DNA of 64,000 nucleotides from an uncultured Gemmatimonadales bacterium (lineage in GTDB: Bacteria > Gemmatimonadota > Gemmatimonadetes > Gemmatimonadales > GWC2-71-9), in contig CAWCVB010000007.1 in NCBI GenBank assembly GCA_963798915.1, positions 143,640 to 207,639 of the forward strand, written 5' to 3'. The notes under the pieces were generated by a model. That model did no database searches and was not told the origin of the DNA. It saw only the letters and a program-made list of their open reading frames with translations. The translations under genes and the position numbers were made by a program. Position 1 is the stretch's first letter, and every line of letters starts with the position of its first letter. Positions 31,455 to 61,720 of the stretch are shown piece by piece.

Positions 31455-32744
31455 CTACGAGAACCGGCGGAACATGGCCTGGATACGGGCGATCAGCGCC
31501 GCATCCACGCCGGCCTCCCTTGCCTCCGGTTCCCAGCGTTCCAGCGATGCTTCCACCTCTTCGATGATGACGGCGCCGGCCTTCGGAACGTCGAACGCGC
31601 GGCCCACGGCCAGCAGGTCATCACGGGTGAAATCGTCGTCCTTGCCGCGGGCGGTCATCTGGTGGGTCATGGCCCACGCGCCGCCGTAGGCAAAGGTCAT
31701 GTCAAAGGCGGGTGCCAGCCGCCACGCCCCGTCCGGTCCCATCAGGAAGGCGACGTTCTTGACGTGGTCGTCCTGGTTGCGGGCCATGATGTTGAAGACC
31801 ATCCGGCGATACGCCTGGTCTACCGACGGCTGTCCCATGCCCAGCAGGCGAATGGTGCGGAAGTAATCTTCGTAGGAGAGAACCTGCCTGACATTGTAGT
31901 CGGCGTGCTGAAGCCCACCCAGGCTGTGCATGTGAAGCCGAGTTCCCTCCTCGCGATCAAAGCGCCGGGTCATGAAATGGGCAAAGTTGCGCTCGCGGAG
32001 CAGGAAGGTGTCGGTCATCTCGATACCGGCCGCACCGGCCATCCGCGAATAGGCAAACTCGATGCGCCCATAGGGACCGGGGTTGAATTCCCTGGCCAGC
32101 ACGTGGCCTCCTGCTCCAGCGGACACGCCATCGAACTTGATGAGCCAGTGCTCATCATCTTTTCCCCTGGGCGCAAAGGCCGACTTCACTCGCTTTGCCT
32201 CGCGGTTCCACAGCACCAGCGCCTTGGCTCGCGCACCACCCGCCGAGGCGCCCAGCTGCATCATTTCGGGCAGCGCCACGTCCGGGTCGCCCTCGATCAC
32301 GCGACGCGCCTCCTCGACCAGCTTCGCAATGGCCAGCGCCTCGCCGGTATCACGATTCATCCGTCCCTCGAGCGGCGGCCGGAACTCCAGCGCACCCATG
32401 GCGCGGCTGCCGATGTAGAGCAGCTTCTGCACCGGACTCATGGCCGCGCCCGGTGTGCCACGCTGCTCGAAGTAGCGCCGGATCACGGCATTGCCGAAGG
32501 CATCGGGAAGACTGTCGGCCAGGAGACCGGGCAGGCCGGCGAATGATTCGGTGCGCCGCAGCTCGGGAAAGGAGACGGGGCCACGACGCGACAGGGGCAG
32601 GTGGATGGGCGAGACTTCCAGTCCCGAGCGCCGGAAGTCCTCGCTATACTCGAACACGATTCCGCCCGTGGGATCCTCGGCGACCGCGCCAAGCTCCTGG
32701 CCCCAGAGCAGGATGCTGGCGACGGCAAAGGGTGACTCAGCCAT
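31455..32744 (-). CDS. hipA: HipA-family toxin kinase
   Basis: N-terminal couple domain (GLPGLLADSLPDAFG), SAGGARAK P-loop, IKFD, RRFDR, RNQDDHVKN, LAPAFDM. Confidence 0.95.
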   Translation of the reverse strand: MAESPFAVASILLWGQELGAVAEDPTGGIVFEYSEDFRRSGLEVSPIHLPLSRRGPVSFPELRRTESFAGLPGLLADSLPDAFGNAVIRRYFEQRGTPGAAMSPVQKLLYIGSRAMGALEFRPPLEGRMNRDTGEALAIAKLVEEARRVIEGDPDVALPEMMQLGASAGGARAKALVLWNREAKRVKSAFAPRGKDDEHWLIKFDGVSAGAGGHVLAREFNPGPYGRIEFAYSRMAGAAGIEMTDTFLLRERNFAHFMTRRFDREEGTRLHMHSLGGLQHADYNVRQVLSYEDYFRTIRLLGMGQPSVDQAYRRMVFNIMARNQDDHVKNVAFLMGPDGAWRLAPAFDMTFAYGGAWAMTHQMTARGKDDDFTRDDLLAVGRAFDVPKAGAVIIEEVEASLERWEPEAREAGVDAALIARIQAMFRRFS

Positions 32745-40034: not shown

Positions 40035-40420
40035 TCACGGGCGCCGGGCCGGCGTCTGCCACAAAACCTCCCGCACCATCCAGACTTCTCCGTACTTCGC
40101 GAGCAGCAGGTAGTCCGTGCCCCATGAGGCCACGACCTTGGCGCTGGCCGTCTGATCCTGAACGTCAAAAACGGTCACCTCGCGCGGCGCATCGGGCGGG
40201 GCGAACATCCTGCGCTCCCTCACGCTTCTGGTGTAAGCGATCGCCTCGGACCACGACATGGCCTCGCCGAGGTAGCGTGTCGAGTCGGACGACCACCAGA
40301 ACCCGAATTTTTGCAGGTCGGGGCTGACGCTGCGGCGGAGCCGGTTCTCGTCGCCCTGATAGAAGCCCTCGACGTAATCCAGGACCGCCCGCCGCATCCC
40401 GCCTCCGCATTCGTCGGGTA
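40035..40420 (-). pseudogene. NTF2-like (lumazine-binding-2 type) gene with disrupted or missing 5' end
   Basis: RRAVLDYVEGFYQGD, DQTASAKVVASWGTDYLLLAKY..W...VLWQ; no in-frame signal peptide upstream. Confidence 0.65.
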
Positions 40421-40483
40421 GATGCACCGCCCGAGACGAGCGAGCCCGACCTCGGCACCGAGCGCGTTGCGGAATCGAGCCGT

Positions 40484-40538
40484 CGTCACTTGCCAAGTGA
40501 CGCCAGCGTGACAGCAGCGTCACGGGCGCCCGTATCCT
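40484..40538 (+). promoter_or_regulatory. Putative SARP/BTAD operator, copy 1, with candidate -10 (TATCCT)
   Basis: T[CG]AC cores at 40486, 40498, 40509 and 40520; 31/41 nt identical to 50009-50049; TATCCT 8 bp after the last repeat. Confidence 0.7.
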
Positions 40539-40575
40539 GCGCTGGGTAGCACGCCGCCGAGGAGGTCGAAGCAAG

Positions 40576-43500
40576 GTGACCCAATTCATGCACAGCAGGG
40601 CTATCCTCGCGACCGCGCTGATGGGCGCGCTCGTCGCCGCCGAAGGCTGCAATCGCACGTCAGGCGCGTCGGCGAGCGACCGAACGGCCATGGCGCTCGA
40701 GCAATGCGATCCGGCCCGCTACATCCCCTGCATTCCGCAGGTCGCCTTTCTTTCCGTCCCCCTTCATGATGCCGGTCTCTATCTCACCTACTCGAGCCAG
40801 TGGGCGCCCGGCGTGTCGGGCCATCGTCCGTGGGACGTCGGCTCGCTGGGACTCGGTGGCTGGTCCATCAATCCCATTCAGCGCTATGACACCGCCCAAC
40901 GGGTGCTCTTCAGCGGCGACGGGTCCTGGCGCATCGCGAGCAGCGTGCGACTTCCGTCGGATGAGCGAGTCGTTCCCAGCTACGACGGAGCACTCGCCTA
41001 CGTCTTCGATCCCGCTGGCCGCCATGTGCGCACCATGGACGGCCACCTCGGCACCGTGCTGCTTCACATCGAGTACGACGCTGTTGGCCGTCTGACCAGC
41101 ATCGACGGATCGCTCGACGGCGCTCCGGCGCACCTGTCGGTCCAGCGCGCACCCGACGGCACGGCGCGCGCCCTCGCGGGTACGGATGGCGGCACGACGT
41201 CGCTCACGATGGAGCCGCGTGGCCGGCTGACAGCAGTCACCAACCCCGCTGGCGCCACCACGCGTATCGACTGGGATGAGGGCGGACACGTCGTCTCGCA
41301 GACGGATCCGCTGGGCGGGGTTGCGCACTACAGCTACGATAACTCGGGACGAGTCGTCTCTTACGTCGACGCGGACAGCGTCGCGCAACGATTCGAGCGG
41401 CACGAATCGAGCAAGAGCCTCGAGATCCGTGTATCGACCACCCTCGGCCGACACTGGACGTATCGCGGGGAGCTTCTGGACGGCGCGATCCGCCGCACGT
41501 TCATCGATCGGGACGGTTCGATGAGCACCGAAACCGTCGACCCACGTGGCGCGCGTGTGATCAAGCTCGCCGACGGAACGAGCTACAGCGTCGGCGCGCT
41601 GGCGCATCCAGTCTGGAGCATGTCGGCGCCGATCTTGACACCCGTGGTGCAATCCCGCCCCGACGGAGTCACAGCCCGGCGCGAGGTGAAGTACGCGCTC
41701 CAGCCGCAGCGTGGTCTTCCCTACATGCTCGCGGGATCTGTCACCACCGTTATCAACGGTCGCGCGTGGAGGCAAGACTTCGATCCTCTCAGACGCACGG
41801 TAGTGCTGGTCGGCCCCGCCGGGCGTCGCACGCTCATCACGTACGATTCCGCAGGCCGTGTGCTGAGCCACTCGGCGCCAGGCAGACCGCCGGCGGCGTA
41901 TGCGTACGACGCCGCCGGGCGGATGGTGAGCGAGACCATCGGGGCGGGTCAACTCGCCCGCACCACCCGCTACGTCTACGACGCGAACACCGGCCGGATC
42001 ACTACCACCCTTCCCGACGGTGTCGTCGAGCACGCGACCGTCGACAAAGCTGGACATATGGTGCAGGCGTCCGCCGGAGACGGCTCGACGGCGATTGCAG
42101 CCTATGACGGTGGCGATCGGCTCATCCAGCTCCAACCCGCCGGAGGGGTGAGCTTCACCCTGGGCTCGAGCCCCGGCGGTCGGCCCACCGCGTTCGTGCC
42201 ACCTGTCGTGCCGGGTGATTCGTCCATTGAGTCGCGCTCCTACGATCCCGATGGACAACTGACGCGGATTGTCGGATCGGGTGGGCGCGCCGTGATGCTT
42301 TCGTACGATGACGCGGGACGGGTGAAGCGCTGGAGCTTCGATCAGGGCACGCGAACCATTTTCTACGACCCGCGAACCGGCGCGACAACTCGGGCCACGG
42401 ATCCGAGCGGCGTGACCACCACCTACGGTTACGCGGGCGACCTCGCCGATCGCCTGACCTGGTCCGGGCCAATTGCTGGTTCGGTCGGCGTCACACTCGA
42501 TGCGAACGGACGTCCCGCGGCCGAAGCGGTGAACGGGGCGGACACGCTGCGCTTCGCCTACGACGGATCGGGCTTGCTCACGAGGGTCGGACCGCTGACG
42601 CTTACGCGCGACTCCGCGAGTGGGCTGGTCACGGCGACGAAGCTCGGGGTGGTCGAGACCCGGCAGACATTCGACGCGAACGGATCGCTCATGCGCGCAA
42701 CGACGACCGTGCGTGGCGACGTGGTGTTCGAGCTGCGCTACACACGCGATGTGCTCGGACGAATCGCGAGCGTCAGTCAGACGACCGGCCACGGGAAGCC
42801 GTCGCGTACCGCCTACGCGTACGATGCGGCCGGTCGGTTATCTGCCGTTCGGGAGAACGGCCGACCGGCGGAGAGCGAGGGCTATGATCCGGCCGGGAAT
42901 CGTGTCGCGGTGAACCGCCCGAGCGCCACCTTAAAGGCCGCCTACGACGATCGCGATCGCGCGATGACGTGGGGCTCGCGTCACTACTCATGGTCGCCCG
43001 ACGGCAGCCTGACTCGGGTCATCGAGGATGCGAGCGCGACGTCGTTCACCTACGACGACTTCGGCGCGCTTCGCACGGCCACGCTTCCCGACGGGCGGGA
43101 GGTCAGCTATCTCGTTGATGCCGACGGGCGTCGTGTGGGCCGCCGGGTCGGGCGGAACATCGTCGCGGGATATCTCTATCGGCTGGATGGCTTCGTCGCC
43201 GCGGAAACAGATCCGAAAGGCAGGGTGGTCTCGCGATTCGGCTACGATGATCTGGGCCATCTCGCGCTGGTGGAGCGTGGCGGCATTGCGTACCGCGTGA
43301 TAACAGATGCGGTGGGGAGCCCACTCCTGGTCATCGATTCGCGGAATGGCAACATTGCCGAGGCGATGGCGTACAGCCCGTGGGGACGCATGATGCAGGA
43401 CACGGCGCCGGGGTTCACTCCGTTCGGGTTCGCGGGCGGATTGCGGGATCCGGACACCGACCTGCTCCGCATGGGAGCACGCGACTACGAGCCAGCGACG

Positions 43501-45789
43501 GGGCGCTGGACGGCGGCCGATCCCCTGCGATTCGCCGGCGGCGATGCGAACTTGTACCGCTATGCGGCGGGCGATCCGGTCAACCGAGTCGATCCACGCG
43601 GAATGTGTATTTCGCTGAAGGAGGTGGACATCGCCATAACTCGCGGCTTGGCGTCTCACTTACCGGAGATGAAGGGGGAAAACGACCTGTGTCCTGACGC
43701 AGCGATCGGCACACTCACGAATCCCGCGACGCCGCAGAACAACAATCCACCTCCACCTGGCGATCCGCCGGCGGCGGGGAACCCACCAGGGAACGGCAGT
43801 CCCTTCGATTGGGGATGCAAGGGAACTATATGCGTGGGTCCGGACGGTCTGGGCTGCGAGTTCGGAAGCTGTCACAAGAACCCGTTCGGATTCACCTGCG
43901 ACGCGGTGTATTGCCACGGGCCAGGCAATGAGTGGTGTTTCTACTGCTCCATGGGCGACCCTCATCTGCAAGCTGGAAACGGCGCTCGCTTCGACCTTCA
44001 GGCCGCCGGCGAATTCCTGATGGTGACCTCGCGCGATGGCGACCACGTCGTTCAGGCGCGGCAGGAGCCGTATGTCCAGGGAGCTCCGGTAACGGTCAAC
44101 AGCGCCGTCGCCGCCAATCTGAGCGGCGATCACGTGGGCGTCTACGCCACCGAACCTGATTTCCTGCTGGTGAATGGCGTACCCGTCCGGCAGCTCGATA
44201 TCGAGAGACGCTTGCCGCACGGCGACTCGATCGAGCGCCACGGTGGTCTTGTGATCCTCCGCTGGCGCGACGGCAGTCGACTGACCGTCAGCCGCGTCGT
44301 GAGAAGCTTGAATTACGCTTTCGTTCCCGGCCCGGGTGTCGGACCGCTGCGCGGCCTGCTTGGCGGAGCCGGCATCGACTCGCCGCACACGCTCACCAGC
44401 CGCGATGGCGCTGTCCTCCGACTCTCCGATCCCACCTTCGGGAAGAAGCTCTATCAGCAGGTCGGCAACAGCTGGCGGATCAGGCAATCCGAGTCGCTGT
44501 TCCACTACTGGCCCGGCGAAAGCACCGCGACCTTCACGAACGTGAGCTTCCCAGCCAAGCTGGTGACGGCCGCCTCGCTCTCCGCTGCGGTGCGGTCGAA
44601 GGCTGAAGCGATCTGTCGCGCCGTGGGCGTGCACACTCGGCCCGTGCTCGACGACTGCATTCTGGACGTCGGGATCACCGACCTGCCCGCCTTCGCCGCG
44701 GCATCGGTCGCCTTGGCGGCGAGCTTACCTCCGCGTCGCGCGCCGTCCGCCACCGCGTCGTCCTCGATCGCATCGCCCTCCAGCGCATTCGCCATCACGC
44801 TCGGCGATTCCGTATCTCCGAATCATCCAGCCAGGGGCGCGGGGATCATCTTGCATGCCGGGGAGAAGCAGTCGTATGCGTTTTCCGCCCCTGCGGGAAC
44901 GAGCATCTTCGTCGAGGTTGGGCCGTGTCAGGGCGCGACGCCCACATTCGAGGTGCTCGCACCGGACAGCACGCCGCTCGGCGGCACCTTCGGTTGCACC
45001 GGGTTCGGTCCGGTGCGCCTCTCCGCTGCCGGCGTTCATCGCATCGTCGTCGCCACCCTTGACACGGGAATGGTCCGCTACCGCCTTACCCTTCGCATCG
45101 CGCCGTTCGACCAGTACGCGATCCGCATCGGTGACACGGTCTCTCCCGACCATCCCGCTCCCGGTGCAGGCATCATCACCAGCCCCGGGCAGAAACAGTC
45201 CTATGCATTCGCCGGCGTGGCGGGCCAGGCCGTGTATGTGGGAGTCGGCCCGTGCGAGGGCGCCAACCCGAGCTTCGACCTCCGCGCGCCGGACGACAAA
45301 TTGCTCGGGGGCGTAATCGGCAACTGTCACGCCGATATCGGCCGGCAGGTCCTGCCCGTGACGGGCACATACCACATCGTCGCAAGCACGGTCAACAAGA
45401 CCGATGTCTCACGCTACAGCTTCTTTGTGCACACCGTTCCCGGCGATCAGCATTTCCCGGTGCGACTGCCGATCACCGTCTCTCTCGATGGTCCGGCTGC
45501 CGGATCCGGGCGCATGCGCACACAGGGGGTTCAGCAGTTCTACGACTTCAGCGCCAGCCCTGGGACGGTGGTCCATGTCGAGAGTCGCTGCAATCCGGCG
45601 TGCTCACATCTGGCGGTCCGGGTGACCCGAGCGGGCGACACTGGCGAAGGCCAGTTTCTCGATCTGAATTATCTCAGACACGATTGGACGTTGCCGCCGG
45701 GCGGCAACTACACGATCCAAGTGCGCTCGACCGGGTTCACTGGTACATACGGCTTCACGGCGTCGCCGGCTGTGACGCGGCGTCGCTGA
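40576..45789 (+). CDS. Secreted teneurin-like RHS/YD-repeat protein with Cys-rich, VWD (GDPH) and 3 PPC-like C-terminal domains
   Basis: Signal or lipoprotein-like N-terminus; many YDxxGR repeats; RHS core PFGFAGGLRDPDT...RDYEPATGRWTAADP...NLYRY...DPVNRVDPRG; GDPHL..G..FDLQAAGEF; three GAGI.....Q.Y.F repeats. Confidence 0.92.
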   Translation: MTQFMHSRAILATALMGALVAAEGCNRTSGASASDRTAMALEQCDPARYIPCIPQVAFLSVPLHDAGLYLTYSSQWAPGVSGHRPWDVGSLGLGGWSINPIQRYDTAQRVLFSGDGSWRIASSVRLPSDERVVPSYDGALAYVFDPAGRHVRTMDGHLGTVLLHIEYDAVGRLTSIDGSLDGAPAHLSVQRAPDGTARALAGTDGGTTSLTMEPRGRLTAVTNPAGATTRIDWDEGGHVVSQTDPLGGVAHYSYDNSGRVVSYVDADSVAQRFERHESSKSLEIRVSTTLGRHWTYRGELLDGAIRRTFIDRDGSMSTETVDPRGARVIKLADGTSYSVGALAHPVWSMSAPILTPVVQSRPDGVTARREVKYALQPQRGLPYMLAGSVTTVINGRAWRQDFDPLRRTVVLVGPAGRRTLITYDSAGRVLSHSAPGRPPAAYAYDAAGRMVSETIGAGQLARTTRYVYDANTGRITTTLPDGVVEHATVDKAGHMVQASAGDGSTAIAAYDGGDRLIQLQPAGGVSFTLGSSPGGRPTAFVPPVVPGDSSIESRSYDPDGQLTRIVGSGGRAVMLSYDDAGRVKRWSFDQGTRTIFYDPRTGATTRATDPSGVTTTYGYAGDLADRLTWSGPIAGSVGVTLDANGRPAAEAVNGADTLRFAYDGSGLLTRVGPLTLTRDSASGLVTATKLGVVETRQTFDANGSLMRATTTVRGDVVFELRYTRDVLGRIASVSQTTGHGKPSRTAYAYDAAGRLSAVRENGRPAESEGYDPAGNRVAVNRPSATLKAAYDDRDRAMTWGSRHYSWSPDGSLTRVIEDASATSFTYDDFGALRTATLPDGREVSYLVDADGRRVGRRVGRNIVAGYLYRLDGFVAAETDPKGRVVSRFGYDDLGHLALVERGGIAYRVITDAVGSPLLVIDSRNGNIAEAMAYSPWGRMMQDTAPGFTPFGFAGGLRDPDTDLLRMGARDYEPATGRWTAADPLRFAGGDANLYRYAAGDPVNRVDPRGMCISLKEVDIAITRGLASHLPEMKGENDLCPDAAIGTLTNPATPQNNNPPPPGDPPAAGNPPGNGSPFDWGCKGTICVGPDGLGCEFGSCHKNPFGFTCDAVYCHGPGNEWCFYCSMGDPHLQAGNGARFDLQAAGEFLMVTSRDGDHVVQARQEPYVQGAPVTVNSAVAANLSGDHVGVYATEPDFLLVNGVPVRQLDIERRLPHGDSIERHGGLVILRWRDGSRLTVSRVVRSLNYAFVPGPGVGPLRGLLGGAGIDSPHTLTSRDGAVLRLSDPTFGKKLYQQVGNSWRIRQSESLFHYWPGESTATFTNVSFPAKLVTAASLSAAVRSKAEAICRAVGVHTRPVLDDCILDVGITDLPAFAAASVALAASLPPRRAPSATASSSIASPSSAFAITLGDSVSPNHPARGAGIILHAGEKQSYAFSAPAGTSIFVEVGPCQGATPTFEVLAPDSTPLGGTFGCTGFGPVRLSAAGVHRIVVATLDTGMVRYRLTLRIAPFDQYAIRIGDTVSPDHPAPGAGIITSPGQKQSYAFAGVAGQAVYVGVGPCEGANPSFDLRAPDDKLLGGVIGNCHADIGRQVLPVTGTYHIVASTVNKTDVSRYSFFVHTVPGDQHFPVRLPITVSLDGPAAGSGRMRTQGVQQFYDFSASPGTVVHVESRCNPACSHLAVRVTRAGDTGEGQFLDLNYLRHDWTLPPGGNYTIQVRSTGFTGTYGFTASPAVTRRR

Positions 45790-45916
45790 CGCGTTCCACA
45801 GGGTTTCCCGCGCGCGCGAGCCGCAACCCGGAGTAAAACCCATGAGGTGGCCGATGCGGACAGAGTCAATTGCACTCCAACCAGGAGTTGCGTGCGCGGA
45901 CAGTGCCCTCCGATAT

Positions 45917-46990
45917 ATGCGCGGGCATCGCGGGCTGGCACTGGTGCTGCTTTGTCTCGTGGCGGCGGCATGCACGGGCAGGACACGAGACCGCGCCTCG
46001 GGGCAGGCCGTCGCGTTGCAAGGGAAAGGCGACGCGACACGTGACGACCCCTGCTCGCTGCTCGACGTGAGCGACGTTGCTGCGGCCATTGGCCCACTGG
46101 CGGGACCGCCGTATCGCGGCGACCCAAACCCCGATCCCTCGAGCGACGTGTGCCGATACGAGACAAATGATTACCGCCGCATTCAGCTCTCTGTGGATTG
46201 GACGGGCGGCGCGATGGCGATGAAGATGGTGGCCCTCGGCCGGCGCCTCGGGGACAAGGCGCTCCAGGCGGAGACACAGACTGGTATCGTTCTCAAGGCG
46301 GGCGATACGCTGCGCGGCGACTGGGATCAAATTGCCTTGTCGCCAGCCTCCTGCTGCTCACTCGACGCGCTCCGGGGCGACGCGGACGTGCAGCTCGACT
46401 GGACGGGGACGCGCCTGACCATCGCCGCCGCGGGCGCGCTGCTCAATTCGGCCATCAGGCGGCTGAACCATCGGCTGGCGATTGACGGCACGGCCGGCGA
46501 AGCAGCGGCGAAGCAGCGTTGGGCGGCAATGGCGCAAGACAGCGCGCTCGACGCATGCGGGCTCGTCTCCCAGCAGGACGCCGAGGCGATTATCGGAACC
46601 CCGCTCTCGGTGCCGCCGGACCATGGGTCGGCGCAAGAGGGCCCGCGCCGCACGTCCTGCTATTATCGCACGCCGATGCCGAACGCGCCGAACGCGGCAT
46701 TCGTGTACGAGATCGACCTGAAGGAGTGGAGCGATGCGCACGCGAAGTTCGCGGAGGACGAGTTCGTCATCAACGGCGCCGTGGGCGGGATCCGACGTCA
46801 GTGGTCGGGCGGCGACTCCACCACGCCCGCCGAGGCCCCCGAACCGCCGGGCCCCTGGGACGAGATCGGGTCCTCCGTGAGTGGGGGTTACCAGGCGGTC
46901 AAGGGCCCGCTGCTGCTGGCGGTGTCCACCAACGGAGATCATACCAGAGCACGGGCGCTTCTGGCCAAGGCAGTCAGCGCATTGCAATGA
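45917..46990 (+). CDS. Lipoprotein with two Cys-motif (DUF3558-like) domains
   Basis: LLCLVAAAC lipobox; DPCSLLDVSDVAAAIG..CRY and DACGLVSQQDAEAIIG..CYY. Confidence 0.75.
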   Translation: MRGHRGLALVLLCLVAAACTGRTRDRASGQAVALQGKGDATRDDPCSLLDVSDVAAAIGPLAGPPYRGDPNPDPSSDVCRYETNDYRRIQLSVDWTGGAMAMKMVALGRRLGDKALQAETQTGIVLKAGDTLRGDWDQIALSPASCCSLDALRGDADVQLDWTGTRLTIAAAGALLNSAIRRLNHRLAIDGTAGEAAAKQRWAAMAQDSALDACGLVSQQDAEAIIGTPLSVPPDHGSAQEGPRRTSCYYRTPMPNAPNAAFVYEIDLKEWSDAHAKFAEDEFVINGAVGGIRRQWSGGDSTTPAEAPEPPGPWDEIGSSVSGGYQAVKGPLLLAVSTNGDHTRARALLAKAVSALQ

Positions 46991-54028: not shown

Positions 54029-54409
54029 ATGGCCACCTCCGATGCAGATGAAGGAGCCGATACGCTTGCCGCGGTCGAGCGCTTCAATGCTGCGTTCAAT
54101 CGCCATGATGTGGACGCCATCATGGCGGCGATGACCGATGACTGCATCTTCGAGAGCACTCGGCCGGTGCCGGATGGCGAACGCCTCGAAGGACAGGCGC
54201 GCGTACGCGCGTTCTGGGAAGAGTTCTTCCGACGATCGCCCGAGGCACAGTTCGAAACAGAGGAAGTTTTCGCGGCCGGGAATCGCTGTGTGGTGCGGTG
54301 GATCTATCGTTGGGTGAGGGACGGCGTTGCGGGACGGGTCCGGGGAGTGGACCTGTTCCGGGTCCGAGAGGGAAGAGTGGCCGAGAAGCTTTCCTATGTG
54401 AAAGGCTGA
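54029..54409 (+). CDS. SnoaL-like / NTF2 family protein
   Basis: VERFNAAFNRHDVDAIM..MTDDCIFE, RGVDLFRVREGRVAEKLSYVKG; AGGAG RBS. Confidence 0.9.
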   Translation: MATSDADEGADTLAAVERFNAAFNRHDVDAIMAAMTDDCIFESTRPVPDGERLEGQARVRAFWEEFFRRSPEAQFETEEVFAAGNRCVVRWIYRWVRDGVAGRVRGVDLFRVREGRVAEKLSYVKG

Positions 54410-54536
54410 AGACGGACGCCTGTCTCGGGCGACTCGACGCAGGCGCCTGACAGCATCCCTTCGCTCCAGCGGGGGGCCATCGCAGCCGCGAGGGCGGCGC
54501 CCGCCATGCATGAGGCGGCCTAACGGGGAGATCGAC

Positions 54537-55031
54537 ATGGAGCCTGAGAGCGTTCTTGCCGTCATCGCGGGAGTTGCGTCGACGTTCATAGGCTTCACGG
54601 GCGTCATCTTTGCCGTCGGCCGTTCCTCGCGCGATGGTTGGAGCGCAGCGGAGCGTACGGCGCTCCTCAACCTGTTGATACCCTCGGTGGTCGTGCTCTT
54701 TCTCGCATTCATCCCGATTGTGGCCTCCACGGGTATCCACTCTCAGGCGCTGATCTGGCGTGGCGCCAATGCATGCCTGGCTGTCATTCATTTGGCGCTC
54801 GTCACCACCGCGTTGCGAGCGGCCTGGAAGTCGACACTCCTCGAGCCGGTGCCGCTCCGCTTGTTCCTGATCCCCGGCGGCTACGCCAGTGGCATCATCA
54901 GCGCGGTTGTTGCCCTTGGTCACTGGCCGCAGTTCGCCGTGATGGCATTCGTGGCCGGCCTGGTATGGAGTCTTCTTGTGGCCGCCGTCCAATTTGTGAT
55001 GCTGATCGTTCCCCGTCCCGTCGCCGCCTGA
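54537..55031 (+). CDS. Hypothetical membrane protein (~5 TM)
   Basis: IAGVASTFIGFTGVI, hydrophobic throughout; GGAG RBS. Confidence 0.7.
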   Translation: MEPESVLAVIAGVASTFIGFTGVIFAVGRSSRDGWSAAERTALLNLLIPSVVVLFLAFIPIVASTGIHSQALIWRGANACLAVIHLALVTTALRAAWKSTLLEPVPLRLFLIPGGYASGIISAVVALGHWPQFAVMAFVAGLVWSLLVAAVQFVMLIVPRPVAA

Positions 55032-55106
55032 GCCACGCCGTGCTGCCCGCTCACCATCACGCAATGACAATCGCGCGGATCTGCCGCGTGAGGAGAGGAG
55101 CCAGAG

Positions 55107-55637
55107 ATGGCCAGGCTCGTGTTCGGGATGAACCAGTCCCTGGATGGCTACGTCGACCATACGGCGTTTGCGCCAGGCCCAACGCTCTTCCGCCACTTCA
55201 TCGAGCAGGTTCAGGGACTCGCGGGCAGTGTGTACGGTCGCCAGATGTACGAAGTCATGCGGTACTGGGATGACGACCATCCTGAATGGAGCGCGGACGA
55301 GCAGGCCTTTGCGGCGGCGTGGCGGAAGCAGCCGAAATGGGTCGTCTCCCGCTCGTTGACGTCCGTCGGTCCCAACGCGACGCTTGTTGCGGATGATCTC
55401 GAGGGCGCGATCCGTGAGCTGAAGGCCGAGCGCGACGGGGAGATCGAGGTTGCCGGCCCGGTGCTGGCGCAGAGTCTCACCGACCTTGGCCTGATCGACG
55501 AGTATCGGATCTACCTCCACCCGGTGGTGCTTGGTCACGGCAACCCCTATTTCGCGGGGCCCCGGCCGCCGCTCCGCCTTCTGGCATATGACCGGATGGA
55601 CGAGGATGTGCTCAGGCTCGTCTATGTTCCTGCCTAG
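55107..55637 (+). CDS. Dihydrofolate reductase family (RibD C-terminal) protein
   Basis: MNQSLDGYV, YGRQMYE, PKWVVSRSL, GLIDEYRIYLHPVVLGHG.PYF. Confidence 0.92.
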   Translation: MARLVFGMNQSLDGYVDHTAFAPGPTLFRHFIEQVQGLAGSVYGRQMYEVMRYWDDDHPEWSADEQAFAAAWRKQPKWVVSRSLTSVGPNATLVADDLEGAIRELKAERDGEIEVAGPVLAQSLTDLGLIDEYRIYLHPVVLGHGNPYFAGPRPPLRLLAYDRMDEDVLRLVYVPA

Positions 55638-55973
55638 ACTGCGGTGAGGAATGCGGGGTTCGGGTGTTCGCCAGCTCCGCGCGCCGTCGCCCTGTATGTT
55701 GCCGGATCCGTTAGCCGGATCCGTTAGGTCGAGTACTGGTTCGAGCCGACGGATGTCGATTGAGACGAGCTCACGCAAGCCCATGGCAGTACCGTACTGA
55801 CGACGGACCTTTTCGAACTCCGCAAGAGCGCCTTCGCGTGTGAGCGCAGTATAGAGACAGGCGTATTCGCCGAGGCGGTTCCATCGCCCGTGGGAGTACT
55901 TCCAGATCTTGCCGAGGTGGAGGGGAGCCGCGCCTGCAGGGATGTGTCGCCAGACGCGGCCGGCGAACAGCAT
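55634..55973 (-). pseudogene. RES-domain toxin, frameshifted by a 13-bp tandem duplication and truncated
   Basis: GRWNR, CLYTAL, ALAE, VLDLTDP; (gccggatccgtta)x2 at 55701-55726; even the corrected frame stops at 55634, before the conserved C-terminal Ser region. Confidence 0.8.
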
Positions 55974-56531: not shown

Positions 56532-58669
56532 ATGCCCCACCCCACTCGGTTCACCCGCTCCTCCCTGCTCCTGACCCTTGCCATGGCGACAGGCGCCGCG
56601 GGCCTCGCCGCCCAGGCACCGGCGCCGGCGCTCGCCGCCCGTGTCACCATCTATCGCGACAGCTTCGGGATTCCCCACGTCTTCGGCGAGACCGATGCCG
56701 CCACCACCTTCGGCTTTGGCTATGCCCAGGCGGAGGACGGCTTCCCTCGGCTCGAGGACAACTACATCCGCGCGCTGGGCCGGCGGTCTGAAGTGGAGGG
56801 CGAGGCGGGGTTCACCGATGACTGGCTCAACCGGCTGCTCCGGATCCCGGCGCTGGCCCGAGCCGAGTATGGCCGGATGGCGCCGCATGAGCGGGAGCTG
56901 GTGGACGGCTTTGCGGCGGGCATCAACTACTGGATAGCTCGACATCCGGAGACGAATCCGCGGCTGCTTCATCACATTGAGCCGTGGTATCCGCTGGCCT
57001 TCATCCGCTACCTCTATTTCCAGCAGGGATTCGTCTTCAGTGCCGGGCTCCGGCGCGACGAACTCGCCGGCGCCTCCCACGACAGCACCTTCTCCGCCCA
57101 GACCGGCTCCAACGGCTTTGTGATCGGGCCGTCCAGGAGCGCCACCGGTCACGCCATGCTGGTGATCAATCCGCACCTGTCCTACTTCGGGCCGGGACAG
57201 GTCTACGAGGGCCACGTTCACAGCGCCAGCGGCTGGAACTTCACCGGCTACACCCGGTTCGGTTTCCCCATGCCCTACGTGGGGCACAGCGAGGCCATCG
57301 GCTGGGTCAGCACCGACAACGCTGCGGACCTGGCCGATCTCTGGGCCGAGACCTTTGACGATCCCAATGATCCGCTGGCGTATCGCTACGGCGATGGTCA
57401 CCGCCGCGCCGTACAGTGGACCGACACCGTGCTGGTGCTGGGCGACAGCGGCATGGCGCGGCGCGTGGTAACACTCAGGCGCACCCATCATGGTCCGCTG
57501 GTCGCTGTTCGTGACGGCCATCCACTGGCGCTCGGCATGGCGCACCTGGGCGATGACGGCTGGCTGGGGGAGTGGTATGCCATGACGCGGGCGCGGACGA
57601 TGGCCCAGCTCAGGCAGGCGATGCGGCCGCTGGCGATGCTCTTCGGAAATGTGATGGGTGCCGACACTGCGGGGCACATCTGGTACCTCTATAATGGTGC
57701 GGTGCCCCGCCGCGACCCGCGCTTCGACTGGCAGCAGCCGGTGGATGGCAGCGACCCCGCCACCGAATGGCGCGGCTATCACGGCATTGACGAACTGCCG
57801 GAACTCCTGGACCCGGCGTCGGGGTGGATGCAGAACAACAACACCACCCCGTTCCTGCTCACTGATCGCGGCAACCCCGATTCAGCGGCCTTCGCGCCCT
57901 ACATGGTCACCGAGGGCGACAACATGCGGGGCGCCGCCGTCAGGCACCTCCTGGCCGGCCACCCGCGCTTCACCTGGGAGGAGTGGGTTCATGCCGCGTT
58001 CGACACCCGGGTGCAGTTTGCCGATTCACTCCTGCCGGGGCTGCTCGCATCAGTGCGGCGGGCGGGTGGCGGCTCCGCCGAGCGTACCGAAGCGCTGCGC
58101 CTGCTCGAGCAGTGGGACCATCGCACCGATACCAACTCGGTGGCCGTGACACTGCTGTCGCGCATGGGGAAATCGGCTGGGGAGATTGCCGGAGGATCGG
58201 CAGAGCGATCCTACTGTGATGGCGGCCGAGCTCGACTCCACCCTGGCGGCACTTCAGAACGGGACTGGGGCACCTGGCAGGTGCCCTGGGGCCGAATCAA
58301 CCGCCTCCAGCGGATTGACGATCTCGAACCATCCGCAGGTTTTCGGGATGACCGAGCGAGCGTAGCGGTGCCTGGCGTGCCCGGCTGGCTGGGGCGCGGT
58401 GTTCACCATCTATGCACGCCTCGGCCGACGGCCAGCGGAGCAGCTATGGCGTCGCCGGCGGCACCTATGTTAGTGCGGTGGAGTTCGGGCCCACGGTCAG
58501 GGCGGTGGCGGTGCATGTGTTCGGGGCGTCGGACAATCCCTCTTCGCCGCACTACTTCGACCAGGCGCCGCTCTTTGCGCGGGGCGAGATGCGGCCGTCC
58601 TGGCTTGCGCTGGACGAGATCCGCGCGCACCTACAGCGGGCGTATAATCCGGGGGAGGAGGGGCGGTAG
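56532..58669 (+). CDS. Penicillin acylase family (S45 Ntn hydrolase), secreted; frameshifts in the 3' part
   Basis: Signal peptide; RDSFGIPHV, GYAQAED, GSNGFVIGPSRS (beta-chain Ser), INPH, HHGP; C-terminus YVSAVEFG..HYFDQA in another frame. Confidence 0.9.
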
Positions 58670-58851
58670 GGAGCGTCTTGCACAGGCCTAGGCGCGATGT
58701 GATGCATTTCACCCTCGCCGCCAATACTGTTCCACTTCCGATCTCTTGAGCAAGCGCTTTGAGCCTGAATGCCTCGACTCGCGTCGCGGCGGGGTCAGCT
58801 ATCTCACCACCCTTCTAGTTCATCGTCGATTGCGAGCGACCCAGAGGGCCG

Positions 58852-60081
58852 TTGTCGCGAATGTCGGGTGATTACTCTTCACACGGAGGGACCGTGCCTT
58901 CCGATTCCATCCTTGATGGGCAACTTTTGGTTCGCTTGGATCTTGGTCCTAGCCCATTGCAAAACGACGCCTTCGCCTGGGATCGGGCGAATTTCGCACA
59001 CCTTATCAATCAACTTCTGATCTATGATCGGGTGCTGATTCCCACATACGATCTAGGGATTGTTCCGGCGCTGCTTCAGTGGATTGGTCTCGAAGCTTTG
59101 CGAGACCTCATTGCCGATGGATCAATCTGTTTCGTACGGTACCATGGACAGATCGGATATGCTGGCAATGGCAACGGGATAAGCATCTTCCGAATAGCTC
59201 CAGACGATGAGCGACCGTTCGAAGCGTGGTGGCAGGAAGCCGTGTTTAGGGAAACTCCTATCGCGATTGAGCAACAACTTATCAATCAGCGACTGAGCCT
59301 TTCGTCCCAAGAGCGGAGCGACCTTGTCCGCGCCGTGGTCGCCTCCACAATTGAACCGACTTACAGCAATGAGGAGTTTATTAGGCATGTGGTGAACGAG
59401 TCTTATCGCGATATTGTCACGTCTCCGCAGCTCCGGGCGTCGCTCCGCTCGCACTATAAGCTCTCAGACTCGCCAGTTGATGTCGCACGATTGCCAGATG
59501 TCGGACCAGCTGAGTTGCGGGTCTTGGCCGCAGGACACGTGGGCGATGGCCCGCAGCTGGTAGTGCGGGTCGCTGAAGTGAACTACCAAGTCCTGATCTG
59601 CTCAGTGACAGGAGGGCCCGACTTTCATGCGGGAGAGGGTACTCAGGACCTGCTGATCGGCAAGGCTCTGCGTGCTGGATTAAGGCTGGATGCAGCTGAT
59701 CAGTTCGCTAAAATCCTGCAACTCAATGACTTACCAGATGTTGGCGCTGCCGTCGCAGCCGATGAGATCCCACTCGCCAGGTGGTTGGCCATGCGCTCAA
59801 GCACAGCCGCTGTTGACTTTCGGCGATGGCTGCAGACAGTCTCACTAGAGGATGATGACTCGATAATACGTGCTCTGCTGCAATCACTCCGAGAGGAACC
59901 GCGATCCTCACGACTGCCAGTTCGCTTGTTACGCCTAGTCGCTACCTCACTGGCCGGAATGATGGGACCAGGCACTGGCATAGTTAGCGCAGCCGTTGAC
60001 TCATTATTCGTGGATCGTTGGTTGAATGGGTATTCCCCTCGAGTAATACTGGACCAAGTTAACGTATTACGGACGGACTAA
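58852..60081 (+). CDS. Hypothetical protein in the lower-GC island (start uncertain)
   Basis: 409-aa ORF with atypical codon usage; LLIYDRVLIP; C-terminal hydrophobic LVATSLAGMMGPGTGIVSAAVDS. Confidence 0.7.
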   Translation: MSRMSGDYSSHGGTVPSDSILDGQLLVRLDLGPSPLQNDAFAWDRANFAHLINQLLIYDRVLIPTYDLGIVPALLQWIGLEALRDLIADGSICFVRYHGQIGYAGNGNGISIFRIAPDDERPFEAWWQEAVFRETPIAIEQQLINQRLSLSSQERSDLVRAVVASTIEPTYSNEEFIRHVVNESYRDIVTSPQLRASLRSHYKLSDSPVDVARLPDVGPAELRVLAAGHVGDGPQLVVRVAEVNYQVLICSVTGGPDFHAGEGTQDLLIGKALRAGLRLDAADQFAKILQLNDLPDVGAAVAADEIPLARWLAMRSSTAAVDFRRWLQTVSLEDDDSIIRALLQSLREEPRSSRLPVRLLRLVATSLAGMMGPGTGIVSAAVDSLFVDRWLNGYSPRVILDQVNVLRTD

Positions 60082-60230
60082 TAGACGGCGCCTCCTAGGC
60101 AGCTGGTGCGCACAAGCATAATCTCGGTTGACTAGCAAAAGGGGCGCCGAGCACCAAGACTATCGCATCTCCTTCTCAAAGCCTCACGGCACTCGTTATG
60201 CGCCAGTACAAGCGTTGAGGTAGATGATCT

Positions 60231-61637
60231 GTGCCGCGAACCCACTTTGCTCCACCACCATTGAGCGAGGCCGCCCACATCGATGTCTGCCTCCTGGGCG
60301 AGCTCGCGGTCGCACGCCTTCGGCAATTAGCAAATGGACGTCACCGTATCCCAGAGATCGTGGACTTGCGTCTTGTCTTTTCTGACGATGAGACGGCGCT
60401 CCGATATGAAGAAGTGCGGCAGCGCAACGCGCAAGCCGTCGGATTCCGAAATGACGGCATTCAGGCATTCACTAATCTTGCCGAAGTCGTGCCTGCAGTG
60501 CTACGACTCCAGGCTGAAGGCCACTTTCCGGAGCCTTCTGTCACTGATTCCGCTGGGCGCCAAATCGTTGATTTGCCTTTAGATAAGATAATTCGCAGTG
60601 CCGTACAATTTCTGGTTAATGCTGTATACGAGTACCTCAACGAGCGGGGTCATTATACGTTCGAGCCAGCGTCTTTTGCTGAGGTATTTGTTCGCAGCCA
60701 GACCAGACGATCACGCACTCATCTGCAGGTCCGCGCAATCGCGCCTCTCGCCAACTTCACGTCCGATGGCAGTGTCGACTTTGGTGATGGAACGCGCATC
60801 GAGCACTTGTCGGGAAGCGAAAAGACGCAAATCTGGAAGGATGAGTACCTAGAGAAGGCATTCACTGCGACTGAAGTTGCTTCATGCAATTTCGCGATCA
60901 CTGCTGAGGAATTGCGGCCACGTCTCCACAGAGAAGGCGATATTCCTTTTCGCTTCAAGCGGGTAATCATGGCACTTCGGCTCTTGCAGTCAGGAAGAGT
61001 GTCCGCCCCGGCAACCGTGTACGTGGACCAGCCGCCTAGCAATCTGGGCGGGATGACCTCAACTACACACCTTAAAGACATTCTAAACGTCCATCTTTTC
61101 GAAGGTGGCAAATATTGCCTCAAGACTCACGATAATCAGGCGCTGGTTGCGCTATACAACAAGCTCGGGGCCTTGGAGGCCCGTCAACGCGACTACGGAC
61201 AATTTGGATTGTGCCTCCGACGATTTAGCCAGTCCTACGAGCGCGCCTATGCGGAGGATCGCTTAATCGATCTCACTGTCGCTCTTGAGGGTTCACTCTT
61301 GGCCGCTATTGCAGGTGAGTTGAAGTATCGGGTGGCGCTCCGAGGAGCCACCTTACTGCGCGACCGAGCGGCTCCCGAAGCAACCTTTCGCCTTCTGAAA
61401 GCGCTCTACGACATCCGCAGTACAATTGCTCATAATGGCGAGACATTGGACAGAATTAATCATGCAATCTTCAAGGAAATCGACCGACATCGCTTTCCCG
61501 CCGCAGTGGAGACTTGTGTTCGGGCAGTTTTGATCGCCTTCTTGGACCGTATCTTTATGGGCGAGTCCATAGCTGACGTTGCCGCTGGCTTAGACGCGGA
61601 GGTGCTCGCCGCCCTGCGGCCAAGCGAAGCGAGATAG
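60231..61637 (+). CDS. HEPN-domain protein (ApeA-like HEPN), start uncertain
   Basis: DRLIDLTVALEG, ELKYRVALRGA, LYDIRSTIAHNG (Rx4H). Confidence 0.8.
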   Translation: MPRTHFAPPPLSEAAHIDVCLLGELAVARLRQLANGRHRIPEIVDLRLVFSDDETALRYEEVRQRNAQAVGFRNDGIQAFTNLAEVVPAVLRLQAEGHFPEPSVTDSAGRQIVDLPLDKIIRSAVQFLVNAVYEYLNERGHYTFEPASFAEVFVRSQTRRSRTHLQVRAIAPLANFTSDGSVDFGDGTRIEHLSGSEKTQIWKDEYLEKAFTATEVASCNFAITAEELRPRLHREGDIPFRFKRVIMALRLLQSGRVSAPATVYVDQPPSNLGGMTSTTHLKDILNVHLFEGGKYCLKTHDNQALVALYNKLGALEARQRDYGQFGLCLRRFSQSYERAYAEDRLIDLTVALEGSLLAAIAGELKYRVALRGATLLRDRAAPEATFRLLKALYDIRSTIAHNGETLDRINHAIFKEIDRHRFPAAVETCVRAVLIAFLDRIFMGESIADVAAGLDAEVLAALRPSEAR

Positions 61638-61720
61638 CGGACGCAAGTCGTGCTTGCGGCACGTCAATATCCCTTGGCGAGTAGACGAAGCTCGCCCAGG
61701 CACCGCTCTCTTGTGCGCTA

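Follow-up and report, generated by a model that had tools for sequence, protein, structure and literature searches.

A plug-only teneurin-type YD-shell protein with a large, putatively external C-terminal arm from an uncultured Gemmatimonadales bacterium

The window (the whole stretch of DNA analysed, 64,000 nucleotides from contig CAWCVB010000007.1) carries on its forward strand, at 40576..45789, an ORF of 1737 aa plus stop, with a GTG start and an alternative in-frame ATG at 40588. The host is a soil bacterium, represented by a metagenome-assembled draft genome of 17 contigs (84.8% complete). The strings picked out in the initial annotation of this DNA all lie in the frame of this ORF (IPQVAF... 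from residue 53, nt 40732; WDVGSL... from residue 86; VPSYDG... from residue 133), and nt 43602 falls in residue 1009, inside a DPRGM motif. From its N-terminus the protein consists of an anchor and a tether of ~20 aa, then a plug that is contiguous over ~80 aa, then a YD shell of three turns, with an Rhs aspartyl-autoprotease core as the next part. The first of these is a signal peptide extending up to Cys25 (…LVAAEGC; 40576..40650, + strand), recognized from the sequence as a probable lipoprotein anchor, with a lipobox that is atypical for the consensus (Glu at -2). A lipobox-like Cys behind a hydrophobic run was found by regular expression in 57 of the 74 N-terminally complete relatives; inspection by eye of the remaining 17 identified such a Cys in most of them and a hydrophobic anchor without Cys in about five. 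The protein is therefore probably membrane-anchored by a lipid, and SPII-type anchoring has likewise been reported for the teneurin-like proteins (TLPs) of Gram-negative phyla. The tether between the anchor and the plug (residues 26-43; 40651..40704, +) has a helix at residues 33-42 in the model and a length of 13-49 aa (median 20) in relatives.

The YD-repeat shell occupies residues 129-932 (40960..43371, +), as delimited by Pfam, the model and superposition. It matched TEN_YD-shell (PF25023) with 80.9 bits (cut-off 50), and RHS_repeat was also matched. The structure of the shell and N-terminal region was predicted from an alignment of 45 sequences, reduced from 111, with pLDDT mostly above 90 in the shell. 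The closest solved relative was the TLP of Bacillus inaquosorum (BiTLP, PDB 9ifo/9pt5; Raoelijaona et al. 2026, PMC13018210), with model residues 7-985 superposed on residues 706-2144 of the 9ifo chain, plug pieces included (VIA-align Z of 43.4, rmsd 2.1 Å, 949 residues, 27% identity). The metazoan teneurins (6fb3, 8fia) share the shell fold with Z values of 28-35 and an rmsd of about 3.1 Å over about 945 residues. A phmmer search of PDB sequences gave E values of 5.4e-93 for BiTLP, 1e-37 to 6e-26 for teneurins, 3.6e-31 for RhsA and 1.4e-4 for TccC2, and Foldseek TMq values were 0.80 for BiTLP, 0.69-0.78 for teneurins, 0.41-0.63 for T6SS Rhs proteins and about 0.35 for TcB-TcC. On these sequence and model comparisons the shell is of the teneurin type, as had been proposed from the sequence alone, and TLPs share this three-turn YD shell. 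A shell of the ordinary T6SS Rhs or TcB-TcC kind was also considered, and was ruled out by matches weaker than that of BiTLP in the PDB phmmer search, Foldseek and VIA-align. The T6SS Rhs effectors (RhsA 7q97, Tse5 8cp6, RhsP 8h8a/b, Tre23 7pq5) resemble it in the size of the YD shell, in the autoprotease of the Rhs core and in having a compact plug at the N-terminus, but they superpose less well (VIA rmsd 3.3-10 Å), are mounted on PAAR or VgrG and combine a small encapsulated toxin with an immunity gene. The TcB-TcC cocoons (4o9x, 4igl) have a YD cocoon and the same autoprotease, but the cocoon consists of four turns and two chains and is shut by a beta-propeller.

The shell is followed by an Rhs-associated core at residues 933-1010 (43372..43605, +; TIGR03696, 74.7 bits, cut-off 32.5). 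R969, D982, D1006 and M1010 align residue by residue to R2103, D2116, D2140 and L2144 of BiTLP, and R969, D982, D1006 and G1009 are invariant in all 111 aligned sequences. Judging from the alignment, the autoprotease residues (R, D, D; PxxxxDPxG) are intact, as in TLPs, and cleavage is predicted behind M1010 (DPRGM|C). By contrast, metazoan teneurins have an inactive Rhs motif and an uncleaved chain.

Upstream of the shell lie two short segments corresponding to the teneurin plug, the sub-domain by which teneurins and bacterial TLPs close off the N-terminal mouth of their shell. Jackson et al. 2018 (PMC5851990) describe this sub-domain as a 44-aa insertion in the FN domain together with a 38-aa C-terminal extension, both inside the shell mouth. 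Plug piece 1 (residues 44-80; 40705..40815, +), defined by profile alignments and the model, contains C44…C52 and a beta-hairpin (…GLYLTYSS…), with model strands at residues 58-63 and 68-73 (pLDDT 82-90), and by sequence it corresponds to the stretch that teneurins and TLPs have inserted between FN strands 1 and 2. Plug piece 2 (residues 86-128; 40831..40959, +; WDVGSLGLGGWS…RYD…GDGSWR), defined by phmmer and profile alignments, is similarly assigned as the counterpart of the extension at the C-terminal end of the FN domain. The initial annotation had read segments 1 and 2 as shell strands; by their position in the described layout (PMC5851990), they are instead the two pieces of the plug. According to Günther et al. 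2022, the teneurin FN-plug is unlike both the RhsA plug and the Tc plug, and the cork-like plug of T6SS Rhs proteins is reported to be unrelated to it (PMC8765631). The teneurin plug can thus serve as a class marker, because it resembles neither of the other two.

The colinearity of these segments with those of teneurins was confirmed by profile searches. A profile of the family N-terminus, built from 87 sequences, matched all 20 of the full TLPs on which it was tested as two colinear pieces 95-160 aa apart, with scores of -0.4 to 13.9 bits for piece 1 and 13.5 to 39.7 bits for piece 2; the Cys-x8-Cys motif is part of the two-piece plug sequence shared with TLPs. The phmmer alignment with BiTLP placed residues 86-124 on 885-923 and residues 129-261 on 1264-1393. 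A profile of 11 sequences, run against all PDB sequences, retrieved BiTLP with an E value of 3.5e-10, aligned at piece 2 and the first shell strands, and fly Ten-m with one of 1.2e-5, with pieces at Ten-m residues 208-241, 320-361 and 733-774 that are colinear with those of our protein, as are the plug pieces of metazoan teneurins; segment 2 is significant alone, and segments 1 and 3 are weak but colinear. The correspondence of the three segments to teneurin segments, initially proposed without an alignment, was thus upheld, as was their joining by short loops. The two plug pieces are only about 10 residues apart, and the junction loop between them (residues 76-85; 40801..40830, +), located by profile alignments and a drop in pLDDT to 66, lies where TLPs have FN strands 2-7 (about 95-160 aa). 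The site of the NHL propeller of TLPs (about 340 aa) corresponds to residues about 124-131, at the end of plug piece 2. By comparison with TLPs and Ten-m, about 100 aa (the FN sandwich) and about 340 aa (the NHL propeller) are therefore gone from between the segments.

Pfam yielded no match to FN-plug_TEN1-4, TEN_NHL, NHL or TTR in the whole protein at E ≤ 0.01, or in its first 175 aa to FN-plug_TEN1-4 (PF24329), TEN_NHL (PF25021), NHL (PF01436) or TTR at E ≤ 1, and an identical scan detected FN-plug, NHL and TTR families in two TLPs used as controls. The protein also lacked matches to an FN profile made from the 20 TLPs and to a custom NHL profile, and no TEN_NHL match was obtained anywhere in the 84.8% complete host genome. 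The proposed lack of FN-plug and NHL propeller alike consequently held for the FN sandwich and the propeller, but not for the plug: on sequence and model, it has been retained, and the losses are confined to the FN sandwich and NHL. With its placement in the shell resting on superposition statistics, the plug alone would be enough to close the shell mouth. TLPs have been defined by an FN-plug, an NHL propeller and a YD shell adjacent in one frame (PMC13018210). FN and NHL are two domains so far taken to be constant, and an earlier survey search required all three domains, so plug-only forms could not be found. The TTR, TIP and BIG display domains of TLPs are likewise lacking here, and metazoan teneurins differ further in having TTR, EGF repeats and a type II transmembrane anchor.

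The plug-only protein is a member of a large family and not a singleton. No NHL or FN Pfam family was detected in 99 of the 120 clusters listed (90% identity level), with 39-61% identity to the protein, and the next 20 clusters among the matches listed were full TLPs with 34-38% identity. A contiguous plug was identified in 106 of the best 150 representatives (50% identity level), 52 of them with a complete shell, and the plug-only layout was also present in named genome records of several phyla. The origin of the gene in a draft metagenome raises the question of an artefact, through misassembly or internal deletion in a single metagenome-assembled genome; this is extremely improbable, given that the frame is open for 1737 codons, that the layout recurs in at least 99 clusters and in those named genomes, and that the junction loops are conserved in length.

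We investigated whether FN and NHL had been lost or had never been acquired, on the basis of two shell trees (73 and 96 rows) estimated by quick LG+G4 searches, with three rows of unknown type as the outgroup and animal teneurins left out. In the 73-row tree, the family with a large C-terminal part (CTD) was nested among full TLPs (supports of 96*, 97* and 84). Holding the family together with the outgroup cost 18.5 lnL (p-AU 0.338), such that a basal position was not rejected. In the 96-row tree, the large-CTD clade shared a basal polytomy with four further lineages of the plug-only type, and no plug, FN or NHL match was obtained for the row nearest the root (L028). At several points of this tree, plug-only rows paired with FN- or NHL-bearing rows (pair supports of 92-97) or fell inside their clades (enclosing-clade supports of 96-99); P0446 and P0462 were each paired with an FN-only protein (97*). 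At least eight state changes were required, and a single clade of all FN/NHL-bearing rows, a group named after the tree had been seen, was rejected (delta lnL 384, p-AU 3.8e-5). As full TLPs clearly enclose several of the other lineages with a plug only, we infer that FN and NHL are dispensable add-ons that were lost several times, and it is probable that the large-CTD clade lost them too. A 3-residue insertion was considered as a sister-group marker and rejected; it is common to the family and two TLPs (P0117 and L065), but is absent from the nearer sisters in the tree.

It is doubtful that the plug-only shell instead predates the insertion of FN and NHL and that this clade never had either. 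Such a history would accommodate the non-rejected basal position, the basal polytomy with its four plug-only lineages and the unmatched L028, and a contiguous plug is the simpler domain. It conflicts, however, with the nesting of the family in the 73-row tree, and loss is a demonstrated route, given that four or more further plug-only lineages lie within full TLPs or pair with an FN-bearing row; the pairings of P0446 and P0462 suggest that it was stepwise. Moreover, one FN strand precedes plug piece 1 in the described TLP layout (PMC5851990), an arrangement awkward to obtain by simple insertion. Of the two halves of the initial suggestion, a stripped-down or an ancestral-like shell, the first is the more probable in view of the other plug-only lineages, but the p-AU value and the basal polytomy are compatible with either in the large-CTD clade itself. 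The family and its plug-only and FN-only cousins show that the teneurin-type shell has no constant cap other than the 80-residue plug, and these proteins are minimal constructs provided by nature with which the contribution of FN and NHL can be probed.

The CTD behind M1010 comprises 727 aa. The initial annotation had recognized neither the large size of the family nor that this C-terminal part is the more unusual feature. It begins with a proline-rich linker (residues 1011-1076; 43606..43803, +) with no confident structure (pLDDT 22-26), the counterparts of which in 37 relatives are 14-126 aa long (median 74), with a proline fraction of 0.21, and continues with a cysteine-rich stretch (residues 1077-1124; 43804..43947, +; pLDDT 50-60), with 10 Cys residues from the cleavage site to GDPH. 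The following VWD-C8-like “D assembly” (residues about 1125-1388; 43948..44739, +), with G1127-D-P-H1130 at its start, was identified from structure matches to VWF and mucin D assemblies (Z 16-21.4, rmsd 3.1-3.3 Å, 224-236 residues) and to RGMB (Z 13.7), with Foldseek E values of about 1e-7. A literal GDPH regular expression undercounts the motif (13/57), and column counts were therefore used; among 47 aligned sequences these were G 45, D 28 / E 19, P 33 / T 12 and H 47. The D assembly is followed by three beta-sandwiches. The first (residues 1398-1509; 44767..45102, +) is PPC- or collagen-binding-domain-like, with structure matches to the ColH and ColG collagen-binding domains and collagenase PPC (Z 11.4-12.2, rmsd 2.1-2.5 Å, 92-100 residues). 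The second (residues 1518-1622; 45127..45441, +) is an internal repeat of the first, recognized by a repeated motif, and matched the ColG tandem s3a-s3b and a GOLD domain. The third (residues 1625-1733; 45448..45774, +) was delimited from model strands (pLDDT 79-95). The CTD model as a whole had a pLDDT of 85.7, and its PPC/collagen-binding-domain matches had Z values of 11-12.7. The protein itself has no Pfam VWD or PPC match at E ≤ 1. VWD was matched in 8 of 12 relatives (26.8-41.4 bits, cut-off 22.9) over nearly the whole profile, and in 3 of the 12 PPC scored above the cut-off, at the corresponding site near the C-terminus.

The CTD is not polymorphic but conserved, with 32-57% identity across 46 relatives, and has a median length of 655 aa in the family (at least 477 aa in 85/91). 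It was not found in 40 genomes related to the host (9 from its genus, 15 from its family and 16 from its order). The CTDs of the 20 TLPs, in contrast, are 113-193 aa long, about one fifth of this size; TLP CTDs are described as small (about 15 kDa), polymorphic and encapsulated, with a BiTLP cavity of about 44,000 Å3 (PMC13018210). The CTD would therefore lie outside the shell, because it is too large for such a cavity, its location being deduced from size only. After self-cleavage behind M1010 it would be displayed there, as is the C-terminal region of animal teneurins, the external domains of which (ABD and Tox-GHH) are unrelated to VWD-C8/PPC, and would act as a ligand- or cell-binding arm, a function that the modelled folds make probable but putative. 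If the CTD is a binding arm, the shell is a scaffold or anchor and not a toxin capsule. A conserved VWD-C8/PPC arm of 650-730 aa behind an intact autoprotease site is, in any case, hard to reconcile with encapsulation.

The intact autoprotease residues, the toxic CTDs described for TLPs (PMC13018210), the peptidase M91 “effector” domain on some bacterial VWD proteins and a lipoprotein gene at 45842-46990, starting 53 nt downstream of the ORF, would all fit an ordinary polymorphic Rhs toxin, in which the CTD is or contains a toxin freed by cleavage and an immunity gene, such as this neighbor, lies nearby. This is nevertheless very unlikely for a CTD that is conserved, about five times the size of those of TLPs and composed of extracellular-type binding folds. 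No toxin family was matched in Pfam or NCBIfam, and these databases yielded no match to a delivery module (PAAR, VgrG or TcB interface) either, the plug being preceded only by the signal peptide and tether. The lipoprotein was examined as a candidate partner or immunity protein and rejected: it had no Pfam match and no tblastn match in any of 76 related loci, and no neighboring gene was conserved across 11 loci, although immunity genes can be non-homologous. Taken together, the locus is best explained, with a probability that we put at roughly 0.6, as encoding a plug-only teneurin-class shell protein with an external arm, in which the shell is a scaffold and not a toxin capsule.

A C-terminal arm leaving an Rhs shell is known so far only from animal teneurins, and according to reviews nothing indicates that the C-terminus of bacterial TLPs leaves the shell (PMC6425310). 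The family offers a bacterial system in which to study the route of the chain out of an Rhs shell and a possible use of these shells as scaffolds. A bolder history, which we consider unlikely, would make the contiguous plug and shell the original teneurin superfold, with FN and NHL inserted later and a deep clade already routing a large C-terminal arm out of a bacterial Rhs shell; if true, the switch from capsule to scaffold was not an animal invention.

The VWD module has other contexts. Bacterial VWD proteins (from Micromonospora, Streptomyces, Myxococcota and others) are 28-40% identical to the CTD over 37-94% of its length and, like the eukaryotic D assemblies (VWF, MUC2, FCGBP and RGM), have a VWD beta-sandwich with a helical C8-like part behind it and G-D-P-H at the start of the domain. 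The module lies behind the Rhs cleavage site in our protein, whereas the other proteins carry it together with lectin, laminin-G, SBBP, LCCL or peptidase M91 domains, PPC also being among its fusion partners in bacteria. The N-terminal G|S cleavage site of TLPs also differs, with GS in 19 of 21 TLP motifs but R-Y in our protein and Ser in 2 of ~90 family motifs. The first 10 residues behind the C-terminal cleavage site are, however, similar to those of BiTLP.

The shell protein is encoded by a single open frame (40576-45789, forward strand; 1737 aa), in which residue 53 (nt 40732) is the start of the first string quoted by the initial annotation and residue 1009 (nt 43602) lies within the DPRGM motif closing the Rhs core. 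The only Pfam families matched at E ≤ 0.01 were RHS_repeat (E 1.4e-40) and, with 80.9 bits against a cut-off of 50, PF25023 (Teneurin YD-shell); residues 933-1010 additionally matched the NCBIfam entry for the Rhs-associated core (TIGR03696; 74.7 bits, cut-off 32.5). The search against all PDB sequences matched 32 distinct sequences, headed by both entries for the Bacillus inaquosorum teneurin-like protein (TLP), BiTLP (9pt5, E 5.4e-93, and 9ifo, 1.1e-90), followed by animal teneurins (1.1e-37 to 6e-26) with RhsA (3.6e-31) interspersed, by other T6SS Rhs proteins and, in last place, by TccC2 (1.4e-4). Residues 26-1076 were modelled from an alignment of 45 rows (mean pLDDT 86.6, pTM 0.83), with disorder limited to residues 1012-1076 and the first nine residues. 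In Foldseek, the top match was BiTLP (E 1.2e-75, TMq 0.80), ahead of teneurins (0.69-0.78), T6SS Rhs proteins (0.41-0.63) and TcB-TcC (about 0.35). VIA-align superposed 949 residues on BiTLP (Z 43.4, rmsd 2.1 Å; model 7-985 on chain 706-2144) and about 945 on teneurins (Z 28-35, about 3.1 Å); T6SS Rhs proteins reached comparable Z scores, but with fewer residues aligned or an rmsd of 3.3-10 Å. The proposal of a teneurin-type shell was thus upheld, because the best matches were to BiTLP, rather than to the ordinary Rhs or Tc shells named beforehand as the outcome that would speak against it.

The published limits of BiTLP (preprint) place the FN-plug at 673-928, the NHL propeller at 929-1255 and the YD shell at 1256-2139. 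Residues 86-124 of the protein aligned with BiTLP 885-923 and residues 129-261 with BiTLP 1264-1393, the entire NHL interval being passed over. A profile built from 87 N-termini of the family (this protein and its closest relatives with neither FN nor NHL) matched two colinear pieces in 20/20 full TLPs (those in which FN-plug and NHL accompany the YD shell): piece 1 (residues 44-80 here) right before the Pfam FN-plug match, and piece 2 (86-128) 95-160 aa beyond, right before NHL. An 11-row profile run against the PDB picked up BiTLP at E 3.5e-10 and, at E 1.2e-5, fly Ten-m, where the two pieces and the first shell strands (129 on) fell at 208-241, 320-361 and 733-774, with piece 2 alone significant and the other two weak, yet in order. 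The three-segment correspondence with teneurins proposed in the initial annotation is therefore correct. In the published description of the teneurin FN domain, 44 aa are inserted between strands 1 and 2 and the C-terminus is extended by 38 aa; these two parts jointly form a "plug" inside the shell mouth (Jackson et al. 2018, PMC5851990; PMC6425310). The first two segments agree with these plug parts in position and length, and the 9ifo superposition begins at chain residue 706 and leaves no more than 30 of the model's 979 residues unaligned. The protein therefore retains the plug as one uninterrupted domain (residues 44-128, about 80 in all), without the FN sandwich and NHL, so that the absence first read for FN-plug and NHL holds for FN and NHL, and not for the plug itself. 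The teneurin FN-plug is reported to be unlike both the RhsA and the Tc plugs (Günther et al. 2022, PMC8765631).

This "plug-only" layout is widespread. In a cluster search covering 5.8 billion proteins, the first 99 clusters listed after the query (39-61% identity) had no domains other than RHS_repeat and TEN_YD-shell, apart from VWD in 29/99 and PPC in 4/99, and the next 20 listed (34-38% identity) were full TLPs, in which TTR was present besides FN-plug and NHL. The plug-only layout was also present in named genome records from Terriglobales, Acidobacteriaceae, Chloroflexota (Limnocylindrales and others), Dormibacteraeota and, in one case, under the label Gammaproteobacteria. A profile of the plug and first shell strands, run against 1.84 billion representatives, gave 1846 matches at E ≤ 1e-3, 294 at ≤ 1e-10 and 42 at ≤ 1e-30. 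Re-annotation of the best 150 of these 1846 with purpose-built plug, FN, NHL and shell profiles identified 106 with a contiguous plug and neither FN nor NHL (52 with a complete shell), 5 with FN and no NHL (3 complete), 19 with FN and NHL (12 complete) and 20 partial sequences. The 52 complete plug-only proteins had post-shell lengths of 514-938 aa (41 proteins) or 84-213 aa (11 proteins). The published claim of an invariant superfold organisation rests on a search demanding all three domains; no NHL-less or FN-less form was described in the titles and abstract openings of the papers found. In two related loci (L002 and L006), the family gene is broken into two or three overlapping ORFs, which suggests a frameshift or faulty assembly.

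The initial annotation had left the choice between a stripped-down and an ancestral-like shell. In a first tree (73 shell sequences, IQ-TREE quick, LG+G4, SH-aLRT; with three rows lacking plug, FN and NHL as the root), the 22 rows of the family (support 100) were nested among full TLPs (supports 84, 97 and 96), which speaks against an origin before the FN and NHL insertions; such an origin receives some backing from the AU test, in which placement of the family beside the outgroup was not rejected (delta lnL 18.5, p 0.338). In a second tree (96 rows; further representatives added and 10 family rows left out), all large-CTD plug-only proteins (CTD, the part after the predicted cleavage site) grouped as a single 24-member clade (support 99) that included the family (12 rows, support 100); this clade shared a basal polytomy with two full-TLP pairs and four plug-only rows whose CTD is short. 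Elsewhere in this tree, plug-only lineages were firmly nested: L010 and L036 within another clade, of 12 rows and support 99, P0462 paired with FN-only P0491 and P0446 with FN-only P0447 (support 97 each), and those in the pairings P0437 with P0103 and L024 with P0495 (support 92 each). The tree requires at least eight state changes, and a single grouping of all 56 FN- or NHL-bearing rows, a group chosen after inspection of the tree, was rejected (delta lnL 384, p-AU 3.8e-5). We read the nested cases as repeated loss, because it is implausible that FN and NHL domains that are homologous were acquired independently at the same two positions. The two NHL-less, FN-bearing TLPs pairing with plug-only proteins suggest stepwise loss, apparently of NHL first and FN second. 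For the clade of the protein itself, we favour loss of FN and NHL (probability about 0.6) and consider an origin preceding the insertions unlikely. TLPs with FN and plug and without NHL (P0447, P0449, P0491 and L046:6296-10015) are about 1200-1280 aa long. A second plug-only group, from Acidobacteriaceae (L010:6191-10255, L036:6206-10213 and L038; about 1340 aa), has an additional N-terminal domain of about 250 aa without a Pfam match, keeps the GS cleavage motif and ends in a short C-terminal domain.

BiTLP is reported to cleave itself within plug piece 1, between G723 and S724, the Ser being conserved in TLPs (PMC13018210), and the motif C…GS[IV][IV].C was found in 19/21 TLP motif matches. 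Its family counterpart is CD[PL].G[YFL], with Ser occupying the cleavage position in 2 of some 90 motifs and this protein having R-Y; judging from these motifs, N-terminal cleavage has probably been lost in the family, which fits with the presence of an anchor alone upstream of the plug. Among the relatives, a lipobox-like Cys was recognised in 57/74 N-termini by regular expression and in most others by eye, about five having a Cys-less hydrophobic anchor, and the tether behind the anchor is 13-49 aa long. At the other end of the shell, R969, D982, D1006 and G1009 correspond residue by residue to BiTLP R2103, D2116, D2140 and G2143 and are invariant in 111/111 aligned sequences; from this alignment, self-cleavage would be expected behind M1010. 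Residues 1011-1020 (43606-43635) are similar to the first ten BiTLP residues after L2144, the HMMER alignment running across the site, and may be the conserved start of the released chain.

The CTD comprises 727 aa past M1010. The family median is 655 aa, with at least 477 aa in 85/91 members and the remaining six apparently truncated, as against 113-193 aa in 20 TLPs; identity across 46 relatives is 32-57%. The CTD model (pLDDT 85.7) comprises four parts: a Cys-rich piece of poor prediction quality; a VWD sandwich with a helical C8-like part, resembling the D assemblies of VWF, MUC2, MUC5AC and MUC5B (Z 16-21.4, 3.1-3.3 Å, 224-236 residues) and RGMB (Z 13.7); a beta-sandwich resembling clostridial collagen-binding domains and a collagenase PPC domain (Z 11.4-12.2); and two more beta-sandwiches of the same kind. 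Pfam gave no VWD or PPC match in the protein itself, and matched VWD above the cut-off in 8/12 and PPC in 3/12 relatives. The shorter CTD relatives are of two kinds, fragments of family members and bacterial "VWD domain-containing proteins", the latter being fusions with lectin, laminin-G, SBBP, LCCL, PPC or peptidase M91 domains. The VWD-C8 domain opens with GDPH (47 sequences: G 45; D 28, E 19; P 33, T 12; H 47), a motif reported to be cut between Asp and Pro in animal VWD domains (PMC10880436).

The BiTLP cavity is given as about 44,000 Å3, its authors tying the size of the TLP CTDs (about 15 kDa) to it (PMC13018210), and the capacities of the three-turn RhsA and four-turn Tc cocoons as about 15 and 30 kDa (PMC8765631). 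At about 80 kDa (estimated from 727 residues), the disulfide-rich, multi-domain arm is too large to fit inside the shell. The chain would leave through a proline-rich linker of variable length (14-126 aa, median 74, in 37 relatives; pLDDT 22-26 in the model), as the linker of teneurins likewise leads the chain out; reviews state that nothing indicates that bacterial TLP C-termini leave the shell (PMC6425310). The protein is most likely an envelope scaffold presenting a binding module, rather than a toxin capsule. Its combination of anchor, plug, shell, autoprotease and large, probably external VWD-C8/PPC arm is a new architectural variant in the teneurin-like Rhs class.

The host genome is a 3.3-Mb draft (17 contigs, 84.8% complete), with a DNA polymerase I 86% identical to a protein named Gemmatimonadales, a name borne by nearly all named matches. 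It contains one copy of the shell family; TEN_NHL was not found in this 84.8% complete genome, nor was the Pfam FN-plug family, which no control genome matched either. A search of 40 host relatives did not find the CTD, and the closest homologues among the clusters listed were named Terriglobales and Acidoferrales; the gene therefore looks accessory and was possibly transferred. No neighbour gene was conserved among 11 loci. Upstream, a Lumazine_bd_2 ORF (40035-40691, reverse strand) and the shell gene's 5' end share about 115 nt as listed, so the start codon of one or both probably lies further in. Downstream by 53 nt, a predicted lipoprotein of 382 aa with two similar halves (45842-46990, forward strand) had no Pfam match and no tblastn match in any of 76 related loci. 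The window also contains a HipA-like kinase toxin ORF (31455-32744, reverse strand; HipA_C, E 1.4e-45, plus a HipA N-terminal domain). From 58000 to 64000, G+C falls to 0.55-0.60, against about 0.65 elsewhere; this stretch, which includes a DarG antitoxin gene (61721-62803, reverse strand; NF048014, 417.8 bits, cut-off 250), may be a mobile or defence island. Finally, a 617-aa ORF (54120-55973, reverse strand) has a RES domain at its N-terminus (E 6.2e-6).
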